DNA of 16,774 nucleotides from Candidatus Hermodarchaeota archaeon (GTDB lineage: Archaea > Asgardarchaeota > Thorarchaeia > Thorarchaeales > Thorarchaeaceae), in contig JBHLLF010000051.1 in the NCBI GenBank assembly GCA_048885865.1, positions 1 through 16,774 on the forward strand. The letters are read 5' to 3'. The translations under genes were made by a program, and so were the position numbers. This document shows, one piece after another, positions 3,018 to 16,774 of this stretch. Position 1 is the first letter of the stretch; the number at the start of each line of letters is the position of its first letter. A model generated the notes under the pieces. It was not told the DNA's origin and did not search any database. It saw only the letters and a program-made list of their open reading frames with translations.

Positions 3018-3791
3018 TCAGAAGAGTTCAATCGATTTAGCTGAGATAAGAGCTGTGCCCAGCACAATATAGGCTTCAGTTCTAACTATCTGCCCTAGTG
3101 GTTCTATCGGGGAGAGCTCTATACAGCACCATAGTACTATCTGCATGGTGAGGACAAGGACTGACAGGAAAGCAAGTCCGAGAGGGCGTGCTAACCTGCC
3201 GCTGCGAAAGACAAGAAGCACGTAGCCCATGGCTAGAGTGATGACTCCCATTCCAATAGCGAGGGGTGCGGTGGTGAACACTTCTACAGGATTTCTGGTT
3301 GGATTTAGAACCATCACGAAAGATGCAAGAATCAGCATAGCAACAGCTGGAATGATCACCATCATTGCCAATAGTCTGTTATCTTTGGTTGATTTGAGAA
3401 CTGAGTTGGAAGCCCGTAGATATCCTAGTACGCCAATAGCCCAGAGTATCAGCCCCGGCATCTGAACTAGACTAACTGTGAAGAGAAATGCTTCGCTCCC
3501 TTCCTGATTCGCCAGAAGGCTTGCTGCGACCTCAGAAATTGCATAAAGAACAAGCCCCAGAGAGAAAAACATATTCATCAGATGAAATCTGTCTTCACGC
3601 CTAAAGTCTTCACGTCCAAAGACCCACAAGCCAATGATGCCCATACTAAAAGCTGAAACTGGAGCTGAAATTAAGCCCAATATAGACAGTATGGATTGAT
3701 TGTTGATAAGCCAGGCAATTTCACTAGCAATTAGAATGGCAAGCGCGCTGACCACGAAAACATATGTCAAATATCTTTCTCGAGATGACAA
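3018..3791 (-). CDS. Hypothetical polytopic membrane protein (~8 TM segments)
   Basis: 257 aa with about eight hydrophobic stretches, short loops and no soluble domain. The TTG start is uncertain. Converges on the ABC gene with a 12-nt gap. Confidence 0.8.
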   Translation of the reverse strand: MSSRERYLTYVFVVSALAILIASEIAWLINNQSILSILGLISAPVSAFSMGIIGLWVFGREDFRREDRFHLMNMFFSLGLVLYAISEVAASLLANQEGSEAFLFTVSLVQMPGLILWAIGVLGYLRASNSVLKSTKDNRLLAMMVIIPAVAMLILASFVMVLNPTRNPVEVFTTAPLAIGMGVITLAMGYVLLVFRSGRLARPLGLAFLSVLVLTMQIVLWCCIELSPIEPLGQIVRTEAYIVLGTALISAKSIELF

Positions 3792-3885: not shown

Positions 3886-5082
3886 CTAATTCACCTGAAA
3901 TGACTCCCAATGAATGTCAAAGGCAGTACTTGGAAATTGTCGTTCAATGGATCTTCGAGCACCATTGAGAATCGTGTTTACCGGACTTGATCCCATAAGG
4001 GTGCTCATTCTTCTAGTGAACTCTTGGAAGAGGTCTCTGAATCCTCCACTCAATGTTTCAGGTGTAATGCTCCCCCTGACTGTGGCAGATACTAGAGACG
4101 TCTTGATCTCGACGTCTACTCCTTCCTCCAAGCCAACAAAAGCTAGCCATGGCAGCTCTGAGGTCAGTACATCCCTTGAGCTGAAGAATAGGCTTCTCGC
4201 GGGCTTAATTCCAAGTATCTTTGCGGTCCTGTTGAGTGTTTCCTGTAAAGCGGCAGTATACAGTACTGTGGTAGCTTGAGCTGGGGACACAAGCTCCACT
4301 GCTTTTCTTTGGGCAAGAATCGCAATCTCATCCAGAAATCGCTTAAGGTCACTTGTCTTAACTCTCTCCGCTGCTATTGAGAGTGGGGTCTCCCCATCAA
4401 GTTCTGGGAGAACTCTGGCTGTATCTTCCGAGATTCCAACTACAGTTTCTGTGGGTTGAATTAGACTAGTGGCTTGGTAGATGTCGTCAGGCTTAGCAGA
4501 TGGGGCGAGCGTGATTGCCTTCTCCCAATAAGCCTCAGCAGCCATATTCATTGCCAATTCAACAGGAACTTCCAAGAAGTTTGCTGCCTCTTGCACTGTG
4601 CAGACTTCAGGAATGAGCTTTAGAAATGATACCACATCTGCTGATTGAGTGTAGAACTCCCAATCTCGCTTGAGACGCATGGTTGTCTGGGGTTCAATCA
4701 AGTCGCGCACGAATTCCTCAATCACATTACGTTCAAAGCGAGTATACACTGCTAGGTCGAGATCAACCCATCTAAGTAGGCCAAATTGGTCCTCAAACGC
4801 GTCAATAAGCCTCTTGACCTTCTCTCTGACAATCTCCGTGTCTTCTCTAACTGTGACTGCGCCAAGTGTCCACTCACCAAACTCAACAATTATCTTGCTG
4901 TCTGTTCCTTCAAAAGCCCGAGCCTTTGAGGTGACTGAACGAGTAGCTTCATCAAAGAAAGAGGTCATGGCTACGAGGAAAGAGGATAACAGATCAGCAT
5001 CAAACTCAGGCTCTGCGAAATCATGGTGATACATACAAACACCAGTGTCGCGTCTGATGATGTATACGCTTTCTACCTGCAT
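3886..5082 (-). CDS. Longin-like domain protein with tandem winged-helix-like modules (NPR2/NPRL2-like architecture)
   Basis: N-terminus VYIIRRDTGVCMY...DADLLSSFLVAMTSFFDE...LIDAFEDQF fits the longin pattern common in Asgard archaea. Two wHTH-like segments follow (CTVQEAANFLEVPVELA..., LPELDGETPLSIAAERV...). RBS GGTGAGG lies upstream on the minus strand. Confidence 0.7.
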   Translation of the reverse strand: MQVESVYIIRRDTGVCMYHHDFAEPEFDADLLSSFLVAMTSFFDEATRSVTSKARAFEGTDSKIIVEFGEWTLGAVTVREDTEIVREKVKRLIDAFEDQFGLLRWVDLDLAVYTRFERNVIEEFVRDLIEPQTTMRLKRDWEFYTQSADVVSFLKLIPEVCTVQEAANFLEVPVELAMNMAAEAYWEKAITLAPSAKPDDIYQATSLIQPTETVVGISEDTARVLPELDGETPLSIAAERVKTSDLKRFLDEIAILAQRKAVELVSPAQATTVLYTAALQETLNRTAKILGIKPARSLFFSSRDVLTSELPWLAFVGLEEGVDVEIKTSLVSATVRGSITPETLSGGFRDLFQEFTRRMSTLMGSSPVNTILNGARRSIERQFPSTAFDIHWESFQVN

Positions 5083-5887: not shown

Positions 5888-5964
5888 GGGCCGATAGATC
5901 AGCCTGGCAGATCGTCTGGTTTGCATCCAGAAGGTCGCGAGTTCAAATCTCGCTCGGTCCACCA
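5888..5964 (+). tRNA. tRNA-Ala (anticodon UGC), intron-less, CCA encoded
   Basis: Acceptor stem GGGCCGA/TCGGTCC with the G3:U70 alanine identity pair. D stem GATC/GATC. Anticodon stem TCTGG/CCAGA with TGC at 5922-5924. T arm GCGAG-TTCAAAT-CTCGC. Discriminator A at 5961, CCA at 5962-5964. Confidence 0.98.
5942..5962 (+). repeat. Left direct repeat (attL-like; tRNA-Ala 3' end)
   Basis: TTCAAATCTCGCTCGGTCCAC matches 11235-11255 at 20/21 nt. Confidence 0.85.
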
Positions 5965-5973
5965 TTTTCTTCT
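5965..5973 (+). terminator. Pyrimidine-rich archaeal terminator after tRNA-Ala
   Basis: TTTTCTTCT immediately follows the CCA end. Confidence 0.45.
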
Positions 5974-5979
5974 CAATGT

Positions 5980-6825
5980 TTAGATTAGGGGCTTCCTACC
6001 GCAAAAGATGAGATACCCTATATCCTCATATTCCTCTCCCTCTTCAACAGTAATGGCATTTCTGACACCGAGGACCTTCATGACCGTTCTCCTAACTGGG
6101 CCATTGATTAACATATGGTAAATCAATTTCAGATAGGCCTTGATACTGGCTTTTCTGTCTCTAGGGCTCTCTAGGACTTCTTGATAATTCTCAATTAGCT
6201 CCTTATTCTCCAGGTCTAGTCCTGCAAATTCAGCTCTCCACTCCTCAAGGCTAAGAAGTGCTGCGTCAGACCCAAGAACCATCTTCAAGGCAGCGTCTAG
6301 TTTCTCTGCAGCCTCACGTGATCCCTGTGGATTTGGGAACATGTCCAGAGTCCCAATAACTCCTCCTGGTTTTGTCACTCGTATATATTCTTGAAGTGCT
6401 CTATGCTTGTCAGGTACCAAGGCTGTGATTGCTACTCCGTAGACAGCATCGAATGTTTCATCATCGAAGGGCATTTCCATGACATTAGCAACTTGGAACT
6501 TCACATTGTTCAAACCCATTTTTGCAGCCCGTTCCCGAGCCTTTCGTATAAGTATCTCAGACAAGTCAATGCCTGTGACTTGACATCCATATTTCTCGGC
6601 AACCATGCAGCTCGTATACCCTGATGCGCATCCAAGCTCGAGAACTTGAAAGCCCGGATCTGCTTGAATATCTATTGAGTCCAACAGCCTATTTGTGCCC
6701 TTCAGGCCTCCAATCATAGGGCTGTTGAAAGCGCCTATGTATCCTAGGAAGTCATAGAATCCTAACTCTGCAACTTCCTTTCTCGACAATCTCTTTACTT
6801 TCAAACTGATAGCATTAGCCTCCAT
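5980..6825 (-). CDS. Class I SAM-dependent methyltransferase
   Basis: Motif I VLELGCASG, followed by VTGIDLS, MPFDDETFDAV and RVTKPGG. Start uncertain: ATG at 6825 overlaps the upstream stop; alternatives are 6858 or TTG at 6804. Confidence 0.92.
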   Translation of the reverse strand: MEANAISLKVKRLSRKEVAELGFYDFLGYIGAFNSPMIGGLKGTNRLLDSIDIQADPGFQVLELGCASGYTSCMVAEKYGCQVTGIDLSEILIRKARERAAKMGLNNVKFQVANVMEMPFDDETFDAVYGVAITALVPDKHRALQEYIRVTKPGGVIGTLDMFPNPQGSREAAEKLDAALKMVLGSDAALLSLEEWRAEFAGLDLENKELIENYQEVLESPRDRKASIKAYLKLIYHMLINGPVRRTVMKVLGVRNAITVEEGEEYEDIGYLIFCGRKPLI

Positions 6826-8359
6826 TTTGCAGTTGTTCTTGAGGGACAAGCCCATCAATCTCGATTCTGCTTTTGCTGAACTCGTTGGACAATTCGGATA
6901 GTGAGATTTCTCTCAAGTCGGAATTCTTGCGCATATGGCTCCTATGAGTCAAAGCAGCTTCTTGATTTGCTAGTAGTCTTCTCTTTCGGAAATATGCCCT
7001 AATTCCCTCCCAGATTTTCCCTAGGAGATATGTGTTCTTTGATTTGATTTGACGCCAGATGACAGATGGGCGCATGTAGAATCTGAGATAGGCCTGATAC
7101 AATATTGTCTTGAGTTTCTTCTCGTTAATGTCTGCAAGCTTCATGACAGGTGCCAGAACAGAATATTCTATCCAAGATTTGGCATTAAGCAACCCTTCCC
7201 TTTTAGCTTGCTCAAATAGCGGTGTTCCAGGATAAGGGGTGCAAATCGTGAATTGTGCGATCTCAGGATTCAGACGACATGCAAGGCCAACCGTTGACAT
7301 TGCTTCTTCTACTGTTTCACCGGGATAGCCAAGTACAAACGAGAAAATTCTCTCTAGTTTAGCATATTTCGCAATTTCATTCGATCTCCAAACCTGCTCG
7401 AGGGTTATTCCCTTTCGCATCAAATCTAAAACTCTTTGACTTCCTGATTCAACACCAATATACACAGAGCGACATCCTGCCTGCTTTAGCCGCTTAGCCA
7501 TTACTGGATTATTGGAGAGGATGTCTGCACGTGCAGAACAAGTCCAACCTAGAGAGTAATTCCGAGTTCGTATTAGCTCGCAAATTTGTTTTACTCTCAA
7601 AGGATCATAACAGAATAGATCATCCAGGAACTCCAACTCATCAATCTTGTATCTCCTAACGAGTAAATCCACTTCTGCAATCACATTTTCAGCAGACCGG
7701 CCCCTCCATTTTTTCCCAGATGATCTCGATGAAGAACAGAAAGTACAACTAAATGGACAACCTCTGCTAGATATCATAGTACCAACGCGAATTGGTCCTT
7801 GCAGATATTGCTTCATATCCATCAAGTCATAGGCTGGAAACGGGAGTGTGTCCAAATCTTCAATCGGGCGAGATAGAGGATTCCGTTTAATCTCCGAACT
7901 CATCCGATATGTAATGCCCTTGACCTTTTCCAATTGATCTGTTCCCATTCTTTCCAACAGATCTAACATGACATATTCGCCCTCACCTCTGACAACAAAA
8001 TCAATTTGAGGCGCATCTCTTAGGATGAGGGCATCAGAGAAAGAGGCATGTGCACCACCCACTACAACTTTGCAATCAAGGTCAGAATCCTTCGCTACTG
8101 CTGCCAATCTATAAACGTCATAGATCGCAGGTGTAGCCTGAGCACTGATTCCAACAACATCCGGTCTAAATCTCGATATCACTTCTGCAAACTCAGCATC
8201 ATTAGTTTGGTGAAGCATTCCATCATGTATTGCTACTTCATGGCTTCCAAACTCTCTGAGGTAACTTGCCAAATATCCAAGGCCAAGTGGAGGTGTAACA
8301 AATCCGAGTGAGTCTCTAATGTCATTGGGAGAATAAGGAATGGTGAATAATACTCTCAT
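6815..8359 (-). CDS. Cobalamin (B12)-binding radical SAM protein (class B methylase/BchE-like; Gmm-like candidate)
   Basis: N-terminal B12-binding domain (PPLGLGYLASYL, VVVGGAHAS, DFVVRGEGE), SRGCPFSCTFC CxxxCxxC motif, IGVESGS, LGYPGET and TPYPGT. RBS GGAGG upstream. Confidence 0.93.
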   Translation of the reverse strand: MRVLFTIPYSPNDIRDSLGFVTPPLGLGYLASYLREFGSHEVAIHDGMLHQTNDAEFAEVISRFRPDVVGISAQATPAIYDVYRLAAVAKDSDLDCKVVVGGAHASFSDALILRDAPQIDFVVRGEGEYVMLDLLERMGTDQLEKVKGITYRMSSEIKRNPLSRPIEDLDTLPFPAYDLMDMKQYLQGPIRVGTMISSRGCPFSCTFCSSSRSSGKKWRGRSAENVIAEVDLLVRRYKIDELEFLDDLFCYDPLRVKQICELIRTRNYSLGWTCSARADILSNNPVMAKRLKQAGCRSVYIGVESGSQRVLDLMRKGITLEQVWRSNEIAKYAKLERIFSFVLGYPGETVEEAMSTVGLACRLNPEIAQFTICTPYPGTPLFEQAKREGLLNAKSWIEYSVLAPVMKLADINEKKLKTILYQAYLRFYMRPSVIWRQIKSKNTYLLGKIWEGIRAYFRKRRLLANQEAALTHRSHMRKNSDLREISLSELSNEFSKSRIEIDGLVPQEQLQNGG

Positions 8360-8371
8360 CCCTTAGCCTCC

Positions 8372-9925
8372 TCAGCTGATGTCAGGTGCAGCTTCTGATT
8401 GTCGCTGTACTAGTAGTTGAAGAGAGGGCTTTTTGGTTCTGATTGGAAGAAGACTTTGCCAGGCATCCCGATTATTGATACACCCAGGATCTGGTCCGAG
8501 ATAATCATTGAAGTAACCTAAAGCCCTTGCGCGGCAACCACCACAGACATTTCTAGACTCACACGATCCGCATGCTCCTTTCAAGAGGTCCTTATTCCGC
8601 AAATCACCTAGAATGTCTGAGTTGGCCCATAGGTCATGGAAGTCGTCATTCAGTATATTACCAACGCGCACCTCAGGAATGTGCGGAAAGAAAACACAGG
8701 GATAGATGTCTCCATTTGGCTCAATAGCTACATAGAACCGACCAGCGCCGCAGCCGCCGATGAACTCCGAGAGATCTTTCATCTGAAAAGGCAAACGAGC
8801 ATTGAAAAAGTGAGTGGGGTACACCTGACTGCCGGCATTGGGGGCGGAAGGAGTACACATTCTAGAGGCTGCCTTCCGGGCAAGGCGACCTAGCTGTGGT
8901 GCTGTGGTCAGCACTTCCAGGCTCTCGGGTTCTTTTGATGCAATCATCTCCAGAATTTTCTGAAGCATGCTCTCTCTTTCATCTGGAGTGAGATCAGAAT
9001 CAAGGATATCAAGCCCTCGACCAGTGGGTACAAAGTTATAGACCATGAACCACTTAGCCCTAAGATTTCTGCCGAGTTTAATGGTGTCGTGGAGTTCGGC
9101 AAGATTGTGATGTGTGGCAGTCATTGCAATCTCAACGAAAAAACCCTCTGCCACACAATTTTTGATTCCCTGAATTGCTTTTTCAAAAGCTCCAGATACA
9201 CCCCGAAAACTATCATGAGTTTGTGGGTTAGCTCCATCAAGGCTAATTTGAACAAACTTCAGCCCTGCTCTCTTGAAGTTCTTCACACGCTCGAGATTTG
9301 AGAAGGTATAACCATTGGTTGCCATCGCGACATATATCCCCCTTCTTGTCGCGCTTTTGATTAGTTCCAAGATGTCTGGCCTTAGAGTAGGCTCGCCTCC
9401 AGAGAATGCCAGGAACACAACTCCTGCGTCTGCTAGCTTGTCTATACATTCAAGAGCGTCCTTCGTGGACATCTCATCTGCAGTTCTTTCTCCAGCGCTT
9501 TCGTAGCAGTGCTTACATCTTAGATTACATGCTTTGGTGATGTTCCATACAACCTGAAAGGGTGACCCAGGAACAAATGGAGTTCTTGCACCAAACTTGA
9601 CCAGACCTGATATTACACTTGACAGCGATCTTCTGAAGATGGGGTCACCCAGGCCACCTATGATTGAATCAAGGTCAGTGCCGAAGGTGTCTGCACCTGC
9701 AGAGATAAACCGGCGGATGAGCTTTGCTGCAAGTCTACATGATAAGCAACCTTTCATTCTTGTTCCTGCAATTAGGTCAAGTGCAACATTGATTCGCCTA
9801 TCACCACATGCTCTACATTTCTTTGTAATCCTGCCTAAAATTGGCCTTACTAAACGGCTCTTTGAAACCGATTCCAATAATTCTGCCCTTGTGACTTCTT
9901 CATTCACACTTTCCGTCAACGACAC
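8372..9925 (-). CDS. Radical SAM/SPASM-domain protein with a Cys-containing N-terminal extension (Gms-like candidate)
   Basis: CNLRCKHC motif, FSGGEP and QISLDG. C-terminal SPASM cysteines GCGAG...YPC...CGSC...CGGCR...DPGC. The ~120-aa N-terminal extension has CRAC and CLSC. GTG start. Confidence 0.93.
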   Translation of the reverse strand: MSLTESVNEEVTRAELLESVSKSRLVRPILGRITKKCRACGDRRINVALDLIAGTRMKGCLSCRLAAKLIRRFISAGADTFGTDLDSIIGGLGDPIFRRSLSSVISGLVKFGARTPFVPGSPFQVVWNITKACNLRCKHCYESAGERTADEMSTKDALECIDKLADAGVVFLAFSGGEPTLRPDILELIKSATRRGIYVAMATNGYTFSNLERVKNFKRAGLKFVQISLDGANPQTHDSFRGVSGAFEKAIQGIKNCVAEGFFVEIAMTATHHNLAELHDTIKLGRNLRAKWFMVYNFVPTGRGLDILDSDLTPDERESMLQKILEMIASKEPESLEVLTTAPQLGRLARKAASRMCTPSAPNAGSQVYPTHFFNARLPFQMKDLSEFIGGCGAGRFYVAIEPNGDIYPCVFFPHIPEVRVGNILNDDFHDLWANSDILGDLRNKDLLKGACGSCESRNVCGGCRARALGYFNDYLGPDPGCINNRDAWQSLLPIRTKKPSLQLLVQRQSEAAPDIS

Positions 9926-9964
9926 CTACTTGGTTTAGTCATCCAAGGCGGGGGCATTGAAACG

Positions 9965-10558
9965 CTAGCCGCTACCATCGGATTCGAGAATGCCCCCTGT
10001 GAAAACATCGAGGAAATTATCAAAGGCCTTCTCATGGTCATCGATGAATTCTTCACCAAAGAGGAGTTCCGCCATCCGGCTGAAAGAAATATAGCTTAGG
10101 AGAATGAGTGAAGCAGCTTTGGGATCTATCTTCCGGACAGTACCTTTCCGAATCTGCTCCTCAAAGTATTCTGTCAAATTCTTCAAGATTCGCTGGGGGA
10201 CTGAAGACAGTGACTCAGCGACCGAGGGTAATCTCAGTCCTTCGGCATACTGCAAAATCAAGAGGTCCTGTTCTTTTCTTGTGAACTTTATCAGATTGTG
10301 TCCAAATGCTCGAAGAGCGTTCTGGACAAACGAGTCTTTATCCAAATCAAAGATAGGTTCTAGGGATGCGAGTGCGTTTGCTTCAGTATTGGCTATGACC
10401 GTTTTCATCAATCTGTCCTTAGTCTTATACTTCCTGAACAATGTGACCTCGTTCACACCTGCGTTCTCTGCAATCCTCTTTGTCGTTGCGGCTTTGTAGC
10501 CCTGCTGCACAAAGAGGTTCTTTGCTGCTTCCAGGACTCTTTCCTCGATTGATTTCAT
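9965..10558 (-). CDS. TetR/AcrR-family transcriptional regulator
   Basis: N-terminal HTH AAKNLFVQQGYKAATTKRIAENAGVNEVTLFRKYKTKDRL; 197 aa, typical length for the family. Confidence 0.95.
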   Translation of the reverse strand: MKSIEERVLEAAKNLFVQQGYKAATTKRIAENAGVNEVTLFRKYKTKDRLMKTVIANTEANALASLEPIFDLDKDSFVQNALRAFGHNLIKFTRKEQDLLILQYAEGLRLPSVAESLSSVPQRILKNLTEYFEEQIRKGTVRKIDPKAASLILLSYISFSRMAELLFGEEFIDDHEKAFDNFLDVFTGGILESDGSG

Positions 10559-10560
10559 TT

Positions 10561-10590
10561 ATGCAAGTAAGTGCTTGCTTGCATTATAAG
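10561..10590 (-). promoter_or_regulatory. TetR operon promoter: TATA box plus 24-bp palindromic operator
   Basis: ATGCAAGTAAGT|GCTTGCTTGCAT (10561-10584; arms match at 10/12) lies between CTTATAA (10590-10584, minus strand) and the tetR ATG at 10558. Confidence 0.82.
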
Positions 10591-10791
10591 TGTGTTTCTT
10601 AGAGCAAGATTCAATCCAGACCGTCCCTTGCTGAGAAAGGTATGACTCAAAAGCACAAAAAGCGACTGTTTAACGCTTCTGCCATGGGTGGCCGTAGATT
10701 CGAAGAACAGCCATCTAAAAAACGATTGCGAAACATCAATCCAAAAATGAAAGCACTTAAGCAGAGATACATGTTAGACTGCCTGATTCAA

Positions 10792-11223
10792 ATGGAACCA
10801 CTGAATCCGTCTGACGAGTCTTCGTTACGTAGTGCTAGACGAATAGGGATTGTCTTTCTCGCTTATGCCATTGGGCTGCCGCTGATCATAATCGCACTGG
10901 GGCCTCAGTTGCCACCTAGCACCGGTCCATACATGCTTTCATGGGTATTGATGGCTCTGATGCCTGTCGAGATCCTTCTCATCTATGTGTTCTATTGGTT
11001 CTTTAGTAAAAGCGGCAGGTCCCAGAATATTATGGGTCCATCAGTACTCATGTATACGGTTGCATCCACTCCATCCATCTATGCGTTCATAATCGGTTTC
11101 ACTGACTCAGCTCTATCGCTCTTAGCAATTCCATTGGGATTAATGTTCTCTCTTGTAGGCCTCTGGCTTGCTTCTATGTTCATATCCAAACTGTGGTCAT
11201 CTTTACAGGAATTCGATCAGTAG
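10792..11223 (+). CDS. Small 4-TM hypothetical membrane protein
   Basis: Four hydrophobic segments. ATG at 10792 (MEPLNPSD) is preferred over 10642 because AAAGCACTTAAG (BRE/TATA-like, 10750-10761) lies 30 nt upstream. The stop is just before the right direct repeat. Confidence 0.72.
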   Translation: MEPLNPSDESSLRSARRIGIVFLAYAIGLPLIIIALGPQLPPSTGPYMLSWVLMALMPVEILLIYVFYWFFSKSGRSQNIMGPSVLMYTVASTPSIYAFIIGFTDSALSLLAIPLGLMFSLVGLWLASMFISKLWSSLQEFDQ

Positions 11224-11234
11224 CGAATTCTGAT

Positions 11235-11255
11235 TTCAAATCTCTCTCGGTCCAC
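11235..11255 (+). repeat. Right direct repeat (attR-like; displaced tRNA-Ala 3' fragment)
   Basis: TTCAAATCTCTCTCGGTCCAC, intergenic. 20/21 identical to 5942-5962, and 23/26 over 11232-11257 vs 5939-5964. Confidence 0.85.
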
Positions 11256-11268
11256 TACTTCATCATTC

Positions 11269-13087: not shown

Positions 13088-13337
13088 TGCCTGCTAGAAA
13101 AATAGTCGTGATAATGATTGACAACAAGACTAGTACTTCGATCATCCCACTCTCATGATATTATTCGAATTTGAGCTAATAAACAATTGGCCTTTTTTTC
13201 AATCATCTGTCATAAAGCAATCCTTAAGAGGGGTGGTTCTTGCCTCCGGGTTTAACTCACACAGGGAACTAGGCTGTTGACTTTCCATCAATTGAAGGAG
13301 GACTTGGCGCCTAGATCAATCAGTGGTGATACACATT

Positions 13338-15704
13338 ATGCAATTATTCGAGACATTCAACGGTATGGTCTTAATCGAGCAGATCATGATCTTGACGGTC
13401 ATTCTAGCTGCCATAGCCAGTCTCGTGTATGCCTGGTGGCTCAGAAAAGGCGTCTTGGAATTGCCCAAAGGTACTGAGCAAATGCAGAAGGTGTGGAACG
13501 GAATCAGGGAAGGTGCTTTGTCTTATCTCCATAGACAACTGAGGACGATTTTACCAATATTGGTTGTATTGTCAGTCCTTCTATTCTTCACCGTTTATAT
13601 TACCACACCAGAGCGAGGAACGGATATTCTATTTGGTCATACTCCAGACCAGGGACGACTTATTGTAGGAATCGGCAGGTCGTTGGCTTTTATCTTGGGT
13701 GCTAGTTTTTCGCTCATAGTTGGACAGCTCGGGATGAGGATCGCTGTTGAGTCCAACATCCGTGTTGCACAGGCTACACGTGAAGGTGAAGACCGTTACA
13801 ATCGTGCATTGACAATCTCCTATCGTGGCGGTACCTTTACAGGAATGCTGACTGACGGACTGGGTCTGATGGGAGGAACTATCATATTCATTATCTATGG
13901 AATTGCAGCACCTGATGCACTCCTGGGATTTGGTTTGGGAGGCACTCTGCTTGCTCTATTCATGAGAGTTGGAGGCGGAATCTATACCAAGGCCGCTGAT
14001 GTTGGTGCTGACCTCGTAGGCAAAGTTGAGCAAGGCTTACCAGAAGATGATCCACGAAACGCTGCAGTTGTTGCCGATCTTGTAGGTGACAATGTTGGTG
14101 ACTGTGCCGGAATGGCGGCGGACATTTTCGAGTCATATGAAGTCACCATCGTTTCCGCTCTTATTCTGGCTATAGTGCTTTACATTGACAATCCTGCGCT
14201 CCTTGTCTTTCCATTCGCTGTTGTGGTCTTTCCACTTTTTGTGAGGGCAATTGGAGTTATCTCTTCCATGATTGGCACCTTCATGGTCCCAGTCTGGCCA
14301 AGGATTCTTAGGAAGTCTGCAGTCTACGCAGAAAAAGCAATGTTTCTATCATATGAGGCATCCAGCGCTTTTACAATCATACTATCGATGACGCTTTCAT
14401 GGTTCTATGTTGGAGATCTTAGATTCGGAATACTCATTGCAGTTGGTGTCATGCTGGCTGTATCATTCAATCCAATCACGAGTTATTTCACATCGCTAAA
14501 GAAGCCTCCAGTGCAGGAGATCGTAAAGTCAGCCGACACTGGCTATGCAACATTCATACTTTCTGGCCTTGTTGCTGGATATGAGTCGACTGTTGCTGCT
14601 CTTGTGGTAATTGTTGCCACATTTGGAATCTCAGCAGTTTTGTTCTTGGCTCCAGTTGCAGCTGCGGTGCCATGGTTCATAGATGGCATCTTTGGCAATC
14701 TCTGGACACTCTACGGCATTGCCCTGATTGGTATCGGAATGCTATCACATACTGGAAACAACGTGGCGATGGACTCCTATGGTCCTATCAGTGACAATGC
14801 AGCTGGCATAGGCGAACTCTCTCCTGGGGACTTTGACGATGACGCAATGAGGACAATGGCTGAGCTCGATGCCGTTGGGAACACAACCAAGGCCATCACG
14901 AAAGGTGTTGCAATAGCCTCCGCAGTTATTGCTGCAGTAAGCCTCTTTGACAGCTTCGTTGTTGTTGCTGGAATCGAACATCTTCTCATGGACGACCCCC
15001 TAGTGTTCTCTGGTCTGCTTCTAGGTGCCGCTCTCCCATGGCTCTTCTCAGCCTTGAACATCAAGGCAGTTACTCGTGCCGCTGGTGAGATGGTCATGGA
15101 AGTGCGCAGACAGTTCAGGATACCTGGAATATTGGAGGGTACCAAGAAGCCTGACTATGATCGAGCGGTTGACATTTCTACAACTGCAGCTCAGAAGGAA
15201 CTGATTTCCCTTGTGGCTCTCACTGTTTCCATACCTATCATGGTTGGAATTCTATTCGGTGTGAGCGCTCTTGGAGGGTTCCTAGGTGGCATCATTGTTT
15301 CTGGTCAACTCCTGGCTGTGTTCATGTCGAATTCAGGTGGTGCATGGGACAACGCGAAGAAAAGCATCGAAGATGAACCATGCAGCATTGAGGGCAACAC
15401 TGGCAAAGGCTCTGAGAGGCACAAGTGCGGAGTTGTAGGCGACACAATCGGTGACCCATTGAAGGACACAGCAGGCCCCGCACTGAATCCAATGATCAAG
15501 GTAGTCAATCTCCTTGCATTGATTCTTGCTCCACTGCTGGTTCAGTTCAGTTTTGGAGCAGATTCCACAACCAATCTGATTCTTGTTGCAGTACTCTTCG
15601 CGCTGTTTCTGATGACGGTCTGGGCTATCCGCAAGAGTACCAAGCCAGCTGACTTCGGCATGGGTACTCCCGTCGAGGCTACTGCCGAAGCACAAAATGT
15701 GTAA
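13338..15704 (+). CDS. hppA: Membrane-bound proton-translocating pyrophosphatase, predicted K+-independent
   Basis: GGGIYTKAADVGADLVGKVE, EDDPRN, GDNVGD, GPISDNA, GGAWDNAKK and GDTIGDPLKDTAGP motifs. GNTTKAITKG has Lys at the K+-dependence position. ATG at 13338 with RBS GGTGAT at 13325-13330 is preferred over GTG at 13323. Confidence 0.97.
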   Translation: MQLFETFNGMVLIEQIMILTVILAAIASLVYAWWLRKGVLELPKGTEQMQKVWNGIREGALSYLHRQLRTILPILVVLSVLLFFTVYITTPERGTDILFGHTPDQGRLIVGIGRSLAFILGASFSLIVGQLGMRIAVESNIRVAQATREGEDRYNRALTISYRGGTFTGMLTDGLGLMGGTIIFIIYGIAAPDALLGFGLGGTLLALFMRVGGGIYTKAADVGADLVGKVEQGLPEDDPRNAAVVADLVGDNVGDCAGMAADIFESYEVTIVSALILAIVLYIDNPALLVFPFAVVVFPLFVRAIGVISSMIGTFMVPVWPRILRKSAVYAEKAMFLSYEASSAFTIILSMTLSWFYVGDLRFGILIAVGVMLAVSFNPITSYFTSLKKPPVQEIVKSADTGYATFILSGLVAGYESTVAALVVIVATFGISAVLFLAPVAAAVPWFIDGIFGNLWTLYGIALIGIGMLSHTGNNVAMDSYGPISDNAAGIGELSPGDFDDDAMRTMAELDAVGNTTKAITKGVAIASAVIAAVSLFDSFVVVAGIEHLLMDDPLVFSGLLLGAALPWLFSALNIKAVTRAAGEMVMEVRRQFRIPGILEGTKKPDYDRAVDISTTAAQKELISLVALTVSIPIMVGILFGVSALGGFLGGIIVSGQLLAVFMSNSGGAWDNAKKSIEDEPCSIEGNTGKGSERHKCGVVGDTIGDPLKDTAGPALNPMIKVVNLLALILAPLLVQFSFGADSTTNLILVAVLFALFLMTVWAIRKSTKPADFGMGTPVEATAEAQNV

Positions 15705-15759: not shown

Positions 15760-15890
15760 ACTATAGTTTCAAGTTCAGTGTGAACTTCCTACAAAATGCC
15801 GCTTAATCGACATGCTTTTCTTCGGAGAATGCAATACAATATAACAAATAGGCTGTAGTCTCATGTCATCGAGGTTAGGGAGTGGAAAAT

Positions 15891-16774
15891 ATGGAAGAAG
15901 AATTGGTCCCTGACACGTGTTTTGAAGGACATGAGTTCACGGTATGGTCTCTTGCTTTTACACCTGATGGCAGATACATAATCTCAGGTGGACAGGATGC
16001 AACAGTCAGGGTGTGGGACCTGCATTCAGGTAGTCAGCTCCACAAACTTAGTGGGCATCGTGGTGCCGTTTACGGACTGTCAGTTTTGGCAGATGGAACT
16101 AGGGTGGTTTCTGTTGCTGATGTGGACCTCGCAGTTCGAATTTGGGACATTGAAGCAGGAGAACCGATCAGCGCGCTAGCTCCGAATTCGGCACACGTCA
16201 ATGCAGTCACTTCTTCTCCGGATAATAGGTATGTTGTAACTGGCGGAGATGATGGCAAGGCAAGAATCTGGGATATAGACAGTGGAGTTCTGCTTAGAGT
16301 CCTTGACCATGCACGAAGCATATATTCAATGAAAATTTCACCGGACGGTCGGCATCTTGTCATCGGCTCAAAAACCACCGCAGGATCGGTTGAGAAGGGA
16401 CTCATCTGGGTATGGGACTTTGAGCTAGGAATGCTACTTCACACCCTTGAGAGCCACACAGGCCATGTCACATCCCTTGCAATGACTGCAGACTCAAGAT
16501 ACATACTCTCAGGAGGACAGGACGGCACAGTCCGTCTGTGGGATCTTGAAACTGGCACTCTCCTTTACACTATGGCTGGACACGAAGGGCCTGTAGTGAT
16601 GGTCACTGTCACGCCAGACGGCCAACACATCATCAGTGGTTCAACGGATAATACTCTCCGTCTTTGGCAATTGCATGGAGGCGTGTTCATCCATTCAGTG
16701 GAACACACTGAGAACGTTCATGCGGTTGCAGTAAGCGCCAATGGCAGGCATATTGCAACAGGCGACGTTGAGGG
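15891..16774 (+). CDS. WD40-repeat protein (3'-truncated by the window; absent from the ORF track)
   Basis: Translated by hand: MEEELVPDTCFEGHEFTVWSLAFTPDGRYIISGGQDATVRVWDL... The frame is open to the window end, with six complete GH...WD-type repeats and part of a seventh. Alternative start GTG at 15882. Confidence 0.95.
   Translation, partial: MEEELVPDTCFEGHEFTVWSLAFTPDGRYIISGGQDATVRVWDLHSGSQLHKLSGHRGAVYGLSVLADGTRVVSVADVDLAVRIWDIEAGEPISALAPNSAHVNAVTSSPDNRYVVTGGDDGKARIWDIDSGVLLRVLDHARSIYSMKISPDGRHLVIGSKTTAGSVEKGLIWVWDFELGMLLHTLESHTGHVTSLAMTADSRYILSGGQDGTVRLWDLETGTLLYTMAGHEGPVVMVTVTPDGQHIISGSTDNTLRLWQLHGGVFIHSVEHTENVHAVAVSANGRHIATGDVE

Follow-up and report, generated by a model that had tools for sequence, protein, structure and literature searches.

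The closest described relatives of the genes reported here are the glycerol monoalkyl glycerol tetraether (GMGT) synthase Gms, known from M. okinawensis (METOK_RS04425), T. guaymasensis (X802_RS00105), T. celer and P. furiosus (PF0647) (PMC11186832, PMC11214058), and the GMGT methylase Gmm of Thermococcus guaymasensis, a B12-binding radical S-adenosylmethionine (SAM) enzyme encoded immediately downstream of gms (PMC11214058). Gms was first recognized as a homologue of AhbD (36% identity) carrying an N-terminal extension of approximately 100 residues that was annotated as COG4001 (PMC11214058), and Li et al. described it as built of a six-helix N-terminal domain, the radical SAM domain, a bridging region that holds a β-hairpin, and a SPASM domain (PMC11186832). 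The lipid-modifying B12 radical SAM enzymes Cgm, Pgm and Ted are encoded beside genes for small-molecule-responsive transcription factors; MarR genes adjoin cgm and pgm, and lipid methylation in these systems is induced by amphiphiles (bioRxiv 10.1101/2025.10.20.683597). Here we describe a stretch of 16,774 nucleotides from a Candidatus Hermodarchaeota archaeon (contig JBHLLF010000051.1; the whole stretch is referred to as the window), in which a pair of genes of the gms and gmm types is preceded by a tetR gene with its own candidate operator. We consider it likely that tetR, gms and gmm form one module under a single TetR-controlled promoter, that this module serves GMGT cross-linking and probably methylation, and that the class I methyltransferase gene abutting gmm is separate from it.

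The tetR-gms-gmm cassette and its enzymes

The window corresponds to contig C51 in a metagenome-assembled genome (MAG) of 3.58 Mb. The nearest homologues found in the protein search carry the labels Promethearchaeota and Candidatus Thorarchaeota, the GTDB genus of the host also holds a closed 2.58-Mb Thorarchaeota contig, and DNA of the locus recurs in public sequencing runs from sediment and mangrove metagenomes. The list of open reading frames (ORFs) revealed four co-directional, tightly packed genes on the minus strand, which encode a TetR-family regulator, a radical SAM/SPASM protein, a B12-binding radical SAM protein and a class I methyltransferase, and which are separated, in gene order, by gaps of 39 nt (tetR/gms) and 12 nt (gms/B12 gene) and then by an overlap. 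The length of this overlap depends on the methyltransferase start, being 44 nt with a TTG start (5980-6858, 292 aa) and 11 nt with the ATG at 6825. All Pfam matches were far over the cut-offs (TetR_N and TetR_C_7; Radical_SAM and SPASM; B12-binding and Radical_SAM; Methyltransf_25/11/31), and since homologues of each ORF were found in many genomes, we regard all four as real genes and not chance frames. An earlier note on this DNA, made from the sequence alone, had described the same four genes with the same spacing and the sizes of 517 and 514 aa, and had remarked that the cassette holds no precursor peptide, protease or exporter; the ORF list and Pfam confirmed both statements. The features of the cassette are as follows.

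10584..10591, minus strand: TATA-like box CTTATAAT, read from the sequence
10559..10586, minus strand: 28-bp imperfect palindrome TAATGCAAGCAAGCACTTACTTGCATAA, candidate TetR operator, conserved in 7 loci and unique in the genome
9965..10558, minus strand: regulator of the TetR family, 197 aa, heading the operon (Pfam, synteny)
8372..9925, minus strand: Gms-family radical SAM/SPASM enzyme, 517 aa, or 515 aa from the TTG at 9919 (Pfam, tree, model)
6815..8359, minus strand: B12-binding radical SAM enzyme of the gms-adjacent Gmm type, 514 aa (Pfam, synteny, tree)
5980..6825, minus strand: class I SAM methyltransferase, 281 aa (Pfam, start of the database protein)

Judged by its sequence, the 517-aa protein is a member of the published Gms family. 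Its radical SAM motif, C133x3C137x2C140, lies within CNLRCKHC (Pfam Radical_SAM, 4.2e-30), and its SPASM domain was matched over residues 392-455 (Pfam SPASM, 6.4e-9) and extends over 392-482; the three motif cysteines, together with C392, C410, C452, C455, C461, C464 and C482, were invariant in the family alignment. A helical N-domain at approximately residues 13-111 contains the cysteine pairs C37xxC40...C60xxC63, and a β-hairpin is located at residues 367-378. When residues 1-125 were used alone, they matched 90 of the 107 family members, including those of Archaeoglobus (40% identity, E 2e-28), Methanobacteriaceae and Thermococcaceae (E 1.5e-8), while the CxxC...CxxC pair was present in only 30 of the 107. 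The AlphaFold model of the protein (predicted local distance difference test score 86.5, predicted template modelling score 0.87) contained six helices within residues 13-111, a radical SAM barrel, the hairpin at 367-378 and the SPASM region, and this modelled architecture is the one published for Gms. The protein therefore resembles Gms in its AhbD-like radical SAM/SPASM core, its helical N-terminal extension of approximately 100-120 residues, its length within the range of approximately 470-520 aa, its predicted three-cluster architecture and its clade. In contrast to the known Gms proteins, it comes from an Asgard sediment host, shows approximately 38% identity to Thermococcaceae Gms and carries the CxxC...CxxC pair in the N-domain.

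Sequence comparison placed the protein close to recognized homologues. It shared 60% identity with P0021 (KXH73049.1) and 67% with P0005, which represents a cluster that includes P0307 (KXH72834.1). Both KXH73049.1 and KXH72834.1, which are from Thorarchaeota, are on the Gms homologue list of Li et al. 2024 and are 46% identical to the Gms of M. okinawensis that was characterized in vitro, and the verified or native-producer Gms proteins of T. guaymasensis, A. fulgidus and M. kandleri are 42-50% identical to the same reference. The earlier note had proposed a phylogeny of this protein as a check. In the quick maximum-likelihood tree that was run, with same-family or same-genus proxies standing in for the named experimentally tested sequences, the 517-aa protein fell inside a clade with the proteins of Thermococcaceae, Archaeoglobus, Methanococci, Methanobacteriaceae and Thermoproteus, supported by a Shimodaira-Hasegawa-like approximate likelihood ratio test (SH-aLRT) value of 97. 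Outside this clade lay the short representatives resembling AhbD, a second clade of Asgard proteins and a PqqD-bearing SPASM paralogue from the same genome.

The second Asgard clade (P0154, P0163, P0185 and P0143) consists of Gms-like proteins of 476-490 aa that are 30-36% identical to the 517-aa protein over the full length, and it was the sole type in many of the other Asgard genomes surveyed. Li et al. count Asgard proteins of that length and identity, from Lokiarchaeota, Heimdallarchaeota and Thorarchaeota, as Gms homologues. These proteins may differ from Gms in function. The PqqD-bearing paralogue is a 473-aa PqqD(RRE)-radical SAM-SPASM protein of the type that matures ribosomally synthesized and post-translationally modified peptides (RiPPs), and it is encoded on the minus strand of contig C2 (L002:997-2418).

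Tetraether synthase (Tes) was considered as an identity for the 517-aa protein and rejected, as its match to the Tes structure 7tol, across the radical SAM core, scored no higher than 53 bits. A Tes is encoded elsewhere in the same genome: a 547-aa protein on contig C39 (L004:1108-2751) matched 7tol (GDGT-MAS) with 529 bits and an E-value of 8.5e-158. The pathway to the glycerol dialkyl glycerol tetraether (GDGT) substrate is thus present in the host, which, like the known Gms hosts, is an anaerobe encoding Tes.

The 514-aa protein contains a B12-binding domain (Pfam, 1.1e-24) followed by a radical SAM domain (1.7e-22), and its gene, with GGAGG 7 nt 5' of the ATG, lies immediately downstream of gms, as that of Gmm does. 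It was 84%, 53% and 52% identical to the product of the gene that follows gms in three other Thorarchaeota loci. A survey of gene neighbourhoods, also proposed in the earlier note, revealed that this adjacency recurs across archaeal phyla. Among 20 Asgard loci, the B12 orthologue was found after or before gms in four families, following it in 12 further loci; among 80 non-Asgard loci, the two genes were also adjacent in Archaeoglobi, Desulfurococcales, Thermoproteus, Nitrososphaerales and Methanobacteriaceae. Thermococcaceae contain three classes of homologues of the 514-aa protein, of which the class with 39-41% identity lies directly after gms and overlaps it in two genomes. In these two loci, gms is 38% and the B12 gene, over its full length, 40% identical to the pair in the window, and the layout agrees with the published description of gmm in T. 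guaymasensis (PMC11214058). Garcia et al. explicitly list gms-gmm clusters for Thorarchaeota (PMC11214058). In the B12 tree, the clade of the window enzyme grouped with the gms-adjacent Thermococcaceae class (SH-aLRT 93), and the other two Thermococcaceae classes fell outside. By sequence and synteny, the 514-aa protein is an orthologue of the gms-linked B12 radical SAM enzymes and thus of the Gmm type, and methylation is its most likely activity.

Taken together, the tree, the homologue list and the synteny support the proposal of the earlier note that the window carries a gms-gmm-type pair in an Asgard archaeon, and its two suggestions, that Gms carries a SPASM domain and that the genes are often adjacent, proved right: Gms belongs to the SPASM/Twitch radical SAM enzymes, and gmm is often clustered with gms, Thorarchaeota included (PMC11214058).

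In contrast to Gmm, whose methylase role is here predicted for the window enzyme, the 514-aa protein has an additional C-terminal tail of approximately 50 residues. This tail (residues ~462-514, window 6815-6975) is lineage-specific: it has no counterpart in homologues of 454-467 aa, and the sequence departs from that of a related genome, G377, past residue 481. The tail may be former intergenic DNA that is read through to the methyltransferase start. Beside a distant Bathyarchaeia clade of B12 enzymes, an AttH-type hydratase was sought as a marker of Ted and none was found. In a Nitrososphaerales locus, a gene for a 62-aa 4-oxalocrotonate tautomerase lies 3' of gms (L018:6507-6695), which echoes the overlap of pgm and the tautomerase gene reported for T. 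aggregans.

The TetR regulator and its candidate operator

The regulator contains TetR_N (Pfam, 1.2e-12) and TetR_C_7 (5e-6) domains, and the solved structures nearest to it were only weakly similar (UidR, E 7.6e-10). Orthologues that are 93% and 61-64% identical occupy the same place upstream of gms, and identity across the seven loci with an orthologous TetR ranges over 61-96%. The candidate operator TAATGCAAGCAAGCACTTACTTGCATAA runs right up to the tetR ATG and overlaps the TATA-like box CTTATAAT with its left arm. Its consensus, TTATGCAAGCAAGyACTTrCTTGCATAA, was found in 7/7 loci with an orthologous TetR and was perfect in one of them (L053), and the palindrome stayed conserved while the intergenic DNA around it differed between two groups of loci. 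It occurred once in the window, where 0.01 occurrences would be expected by chance, and once in the 3.58-Mb assembly. The centre of CTTATAAT is approximately 29 nt upstream of the tetR ATG, a spacing from which a leaderless or near-leaderless transcript is predicted; this geometry is read from what is generally known of archaeal promoters. The suggestion of the earlier note that the pair is under TetR control is now backed by this conserved candidate operator.

The arrangement resembles autoregulated TetR/QacR units in its N-terminal helix-turn-helix, its C-terminal ligand domain and a long palindrome overlapping the target promoter. Unlike those units, it has an archaeal TATA-like box and a predicted leaderless start, and the regulator heads its target operon rather than being divergent from it. 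The locus also differs from the cgm, pgm and ted loci, which it resembles in pairing lipid-modifying B12 radical SAM genes with a regulator of the small-molecule-responsive kind: the regulator is TetR and not MarR, it is inside the operon and has an identifiable candidate operator, and the enzymes are of other clades.

TetR genes were found at gms in other lineages as well. Sister lineages (SMTZ1-45 type) encode, 3' of gmm, a TetR that is not an orthologue of the one in the window (20% identity), and three of these loci (L013, L055 and L056) contain a conserved palindrome of their own, CATACCGACnnGTCGGTATG, approximately 40-55 nt upstream of gms. This second TetR type appears to have been recruited independently to the same two enzymes. 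A Methanobacteriaceae MAG (L142) showed the same order of TetR, gms and B12 gene, with a TetR 35% identical to that of the window; upstream of the Methanobacteriaceae TetR, nothing that clearly matched the 28-bp palindrome was observed. Genes for TetR proteins also flank gms in Methanobrevibacter acididurans and in a Methanotrichaceae MAG.

On this basis, we infer the following mechanism. Tes would make GDGTs, and Gms, with a lipid-binding helical N-domain, would join two biphytanyl chains by a C-C bridge to yield GMGTs. The B12 radical SAM enzyme would then modify the bridged lipid, most likely by C-methylation, as has been shown for Thermococcus guaymasensis Gmm. TetR is predicted to bind the 28-bp palindrome between the TATA-like box and the start codon and to repress its own operon until a ligand, probably hydrophobic or amphiphilic, releases it. 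The methyltransferase would be a separate resident of a variable interval that came to abut gmm in this lineage.

Whereas the enzyme pair in Thorarchaeota has already been catalogued, we did not find the layer of TetR and operator described before; a full-text search returned no literature linking TetR regulators to GMGT genes. The enzymes are ordinary members of published families; the value of the locus is in its regulator. GMGTs serve as biomarkers and palaeo-proxies, and where they come from in cool anoxic sediments, and which signals set off their synthesis, are questions of interest. A cognate TetR with a precisely mapped, conserved candidate operator is testable and gives experiments direct access to the inducer of GMGT synthesis. 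Asgard membrane biology also bears on ideas about the origin of the eukaryotic cell.

Alternative readings of the cassette

The best NCBIfam matches, NirJ2 and AhbD for the 517-aa protein and BchE for the 514-aa protein, would suit a pair engaged in tetrapyrrole chemistry, in which an AhbD/NirJ-type enzyme is joined by a BchE-like one. These scores nevertheless amounted to approximately half of the equivalog cut-offs (NirJ2 TIGR04055, 255.3 versus 500; AhbD TIGR04545, 251.8 versus 500; BchE, 222.7 versus 481), and HpnJ, for the 514-aa protein, reached 209 versus 578. The AhbD heme b synthase and NirJ have a catalytic radical SAM/SPASM core homologous to that of the 517-aa protein but are without its N-terminal domain, belong to another clade and occur in another gene context; no tetrapyrrole genes were found near the cassette, and Gms itself was at first seen as an AhbD homologue. 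We therefore regard tetrapyrrole chemistry as very improbable. That the 517-aa protein is a RiPP maturase with a precursor peptide encoded elsewhere is hardly credible, although, among solved or curated proteins, SPASM enzymes such as PqqE, SkfB and the mycofactocin maturase come closest to its catalytic core. Pfam found no PqqD/RRE domain in it, unlike in the paralogue on contig C2, its all-helical N-domain is homologous to that of Gms, and none of more than 100 neighbourhoods had a conserved peptide, protease or exporter. Both alternatives, which the earlier note had kept alongside its lipid proposal, thus failed the tests of score, clade and domain content. A different activity of the B12 enzyme is a more serious matter. 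Next to a genuine gms, it might desaturate lipids as Ted does, form rings as Grs does, or methylate unbridged GDGTs or archaeol as Cgm and Pgm do, and the fact that one third of the genomes carrying gmm are without gms (Garcia et al., PMC11214058) would fit such a role. However, the 40% full-length identity to the gms-overlapping gene of Thermococcaceae compares with 31% between Ted and Gmm, the enzyme groups with that gms-adjacent class, and its place right after gms has been kept across archaeal phyla. An activity other than GMGT methylation therefore seems unlikely, though well worth keeping in mind.

The earlier note had regarded the cassette as extended by a third SAM enzyme, and the class I methyltransferase could indeed be a genuine pathway enzyme with the same lipids as substrates, modifying, for instance, a head group or hydroxyl. 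Its gene shares the strand of gmm, the distance from its start to the gmm stop is at most 10 nt where the two do not overlap, and an identical 9-mer, GGAGGCTAA, is present at both enzyme junctions (8363-8371 and 6815-6823, minus strand). The gene order is retained in one other genome, G373, which is collinear and 92.5% identical, with 96% protein identity, and the methyltransferase shows weak likeness to phospholipid and phosphoethanolamine N-methyltransferases. The methyltransferase is probably co-transcribed with gmm here. The copy of the 9-mer at 8363-8371 resembles a Shine-Dalgarno site and lies 7 nt ahead of the B12 ATG; the one at 6815-6823 lies past the ATG at 6825, and the start that it would serve is an in-frame TTG at 6804 instead. 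The ATG at 6825 (281 aa) is a likelier start than the TTG at 6858 (292 aa), and it is the start used in the database protein P0340. The family is Asgard-specific, with proteins of approximately 270 aa, and was present in 19 of 86 genomes of the host's family, but it abuts gmm only in the window and in G373; as these genomes are close kin, the adjacency counts as one event. The G377 cassette, which is otherwise collinear and 87% identical over 6918-10660, has no methyltransferase, and a homologue of a 193-aa membrane protein is found there instead, having moved from the other side of the cassette. In six genomes of the same family that have both genes (G346, G357, G359, G360, G374 and G377), the methyltransferase and gms are on different contigs, and in relatives without radical SAM genes the methyltransferase is located between ZPR1 and tRNA-Ala or near the H+-pyrophosphatase gene. 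All of its family matches were generic and far under the cut-offs. From this distribution, the methyltransferase is a separable neighbour and not a conserved member of the module, and a role as third pathway enzyme is quite improbable. The result takes away a tempting over-reading of the supposed third enzyme.

Several points weigh against our preferred reading of a TetR-controlled gms-gmm module with a separate methyltransferase. The B12 radical SAM family spans methylases (Gmm, Cgm and Pgm) as well as ring synthases (Grs) and the desaturase Ted, which shares 31% identity with Gmm; proteins that are 30-40% identical to Gmm can be GDGT methylases or Ted, and Ted homologues have been reported in Asgard archaea (bioRxiv 10.1101/2025.10.20.683597). 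The quick B12 tree has unresolved deep nodes and was built from sequences other than the named Tg-Gmm, MoeK5, Ted and Grs proteins, so that the word methylase is used here as a prediction. The overlap with gmm and the shared GGAGGCTAA leave a small probability for a lineage-specific functional link of the methyltransferase. A repressor within its own operon could mean plain negative feedback and not induction. GMGTs are best known from thermophiles, and this DNA is from sediment and mangrove metagenomes. Finally, the MAG (G000) is 87% complete with 5.3% contamination.

A broader reading can be put forward tentatively, as possible rather than probable: that tetR, the operator, gms and gmm constitute a self-contained, horizontally mobile "sense and remodel" module, through which a membrane-active small molecule would switch on tetraether cross-linking and methylation in mesophilic sediment Asgard archaea. 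On this reading, two unrelated TetRs, each with a putative operator of its own, were recruited to one enzyme pair, which would point to selection for ligand-gated control. If this were true, no transcriptional switch for the remodelling of archaeal tetraethers would have been defined earlier.

The variable interval and its flanks

The cassette is located in an interval between tRNA-Ala/ZPR1 and the H+-pyrophosphatase gene that carries different cargo among relatives. The features that mark this interval are as follows.

5888..5964, plus strand: tRNA-Ala(TGC), left edge of the variable interval (tRNA call)
10642..11223, plus strand: 193-aa predicted membrane protein, divergent from tetR (ORF list, synteny)
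11232..11260, plus strand: imperfect copy (25/29) of the tRNA-Ala 3' end (repeat search)

The 3.7-kb module (~6918-10660) appears to behave as a transferable unit. Other species of the genus carry a tetR-gms-gmm module that is approximately 65% identical, in surroundings unrelated to those of the window, and the three genes therefore appear to move as a block. Sequence conservation with G377 ends exactly at 5964, the 3' edge of tRNA-Ala. A 29-nt direct repeat (25/29 identical; 5939-5967 and 11232-11260) flanks the methyltransferase, gmm, gms, tetR and the 193-aa ORF, and the copy of the tRNA-Ala 3' end at 11232-11260 is possibly the remnant of an old attachment site; no integrase was found between the repeats. 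Contigs aligned with the locus mostly represented many organisms sharing the tRNA sequence, and the joint at 10616 alone was informative for the boundary of the module.

Other differences and conserved genes were observed around the interval. In L020, the methyltransferase is on the tRNA's other side, and 47 nt of the end of ZPR1 are duplicated. To the left of the tRNA, a 398-aa ORF (window 3886-5082) and a 257-aa ORF encoding a multi-pass membrane protein (3018-3791) matched no Pfam or NCBIfam family, and both are syntenic with ZPR1 and an ABC transporter in relatives. On the right side, the membrane H+-pyrophosphatase (window 13323-15704) and a WD40 β-propeller protein (15882-16772) are encoded by backbone genes that are conserved in relatives.

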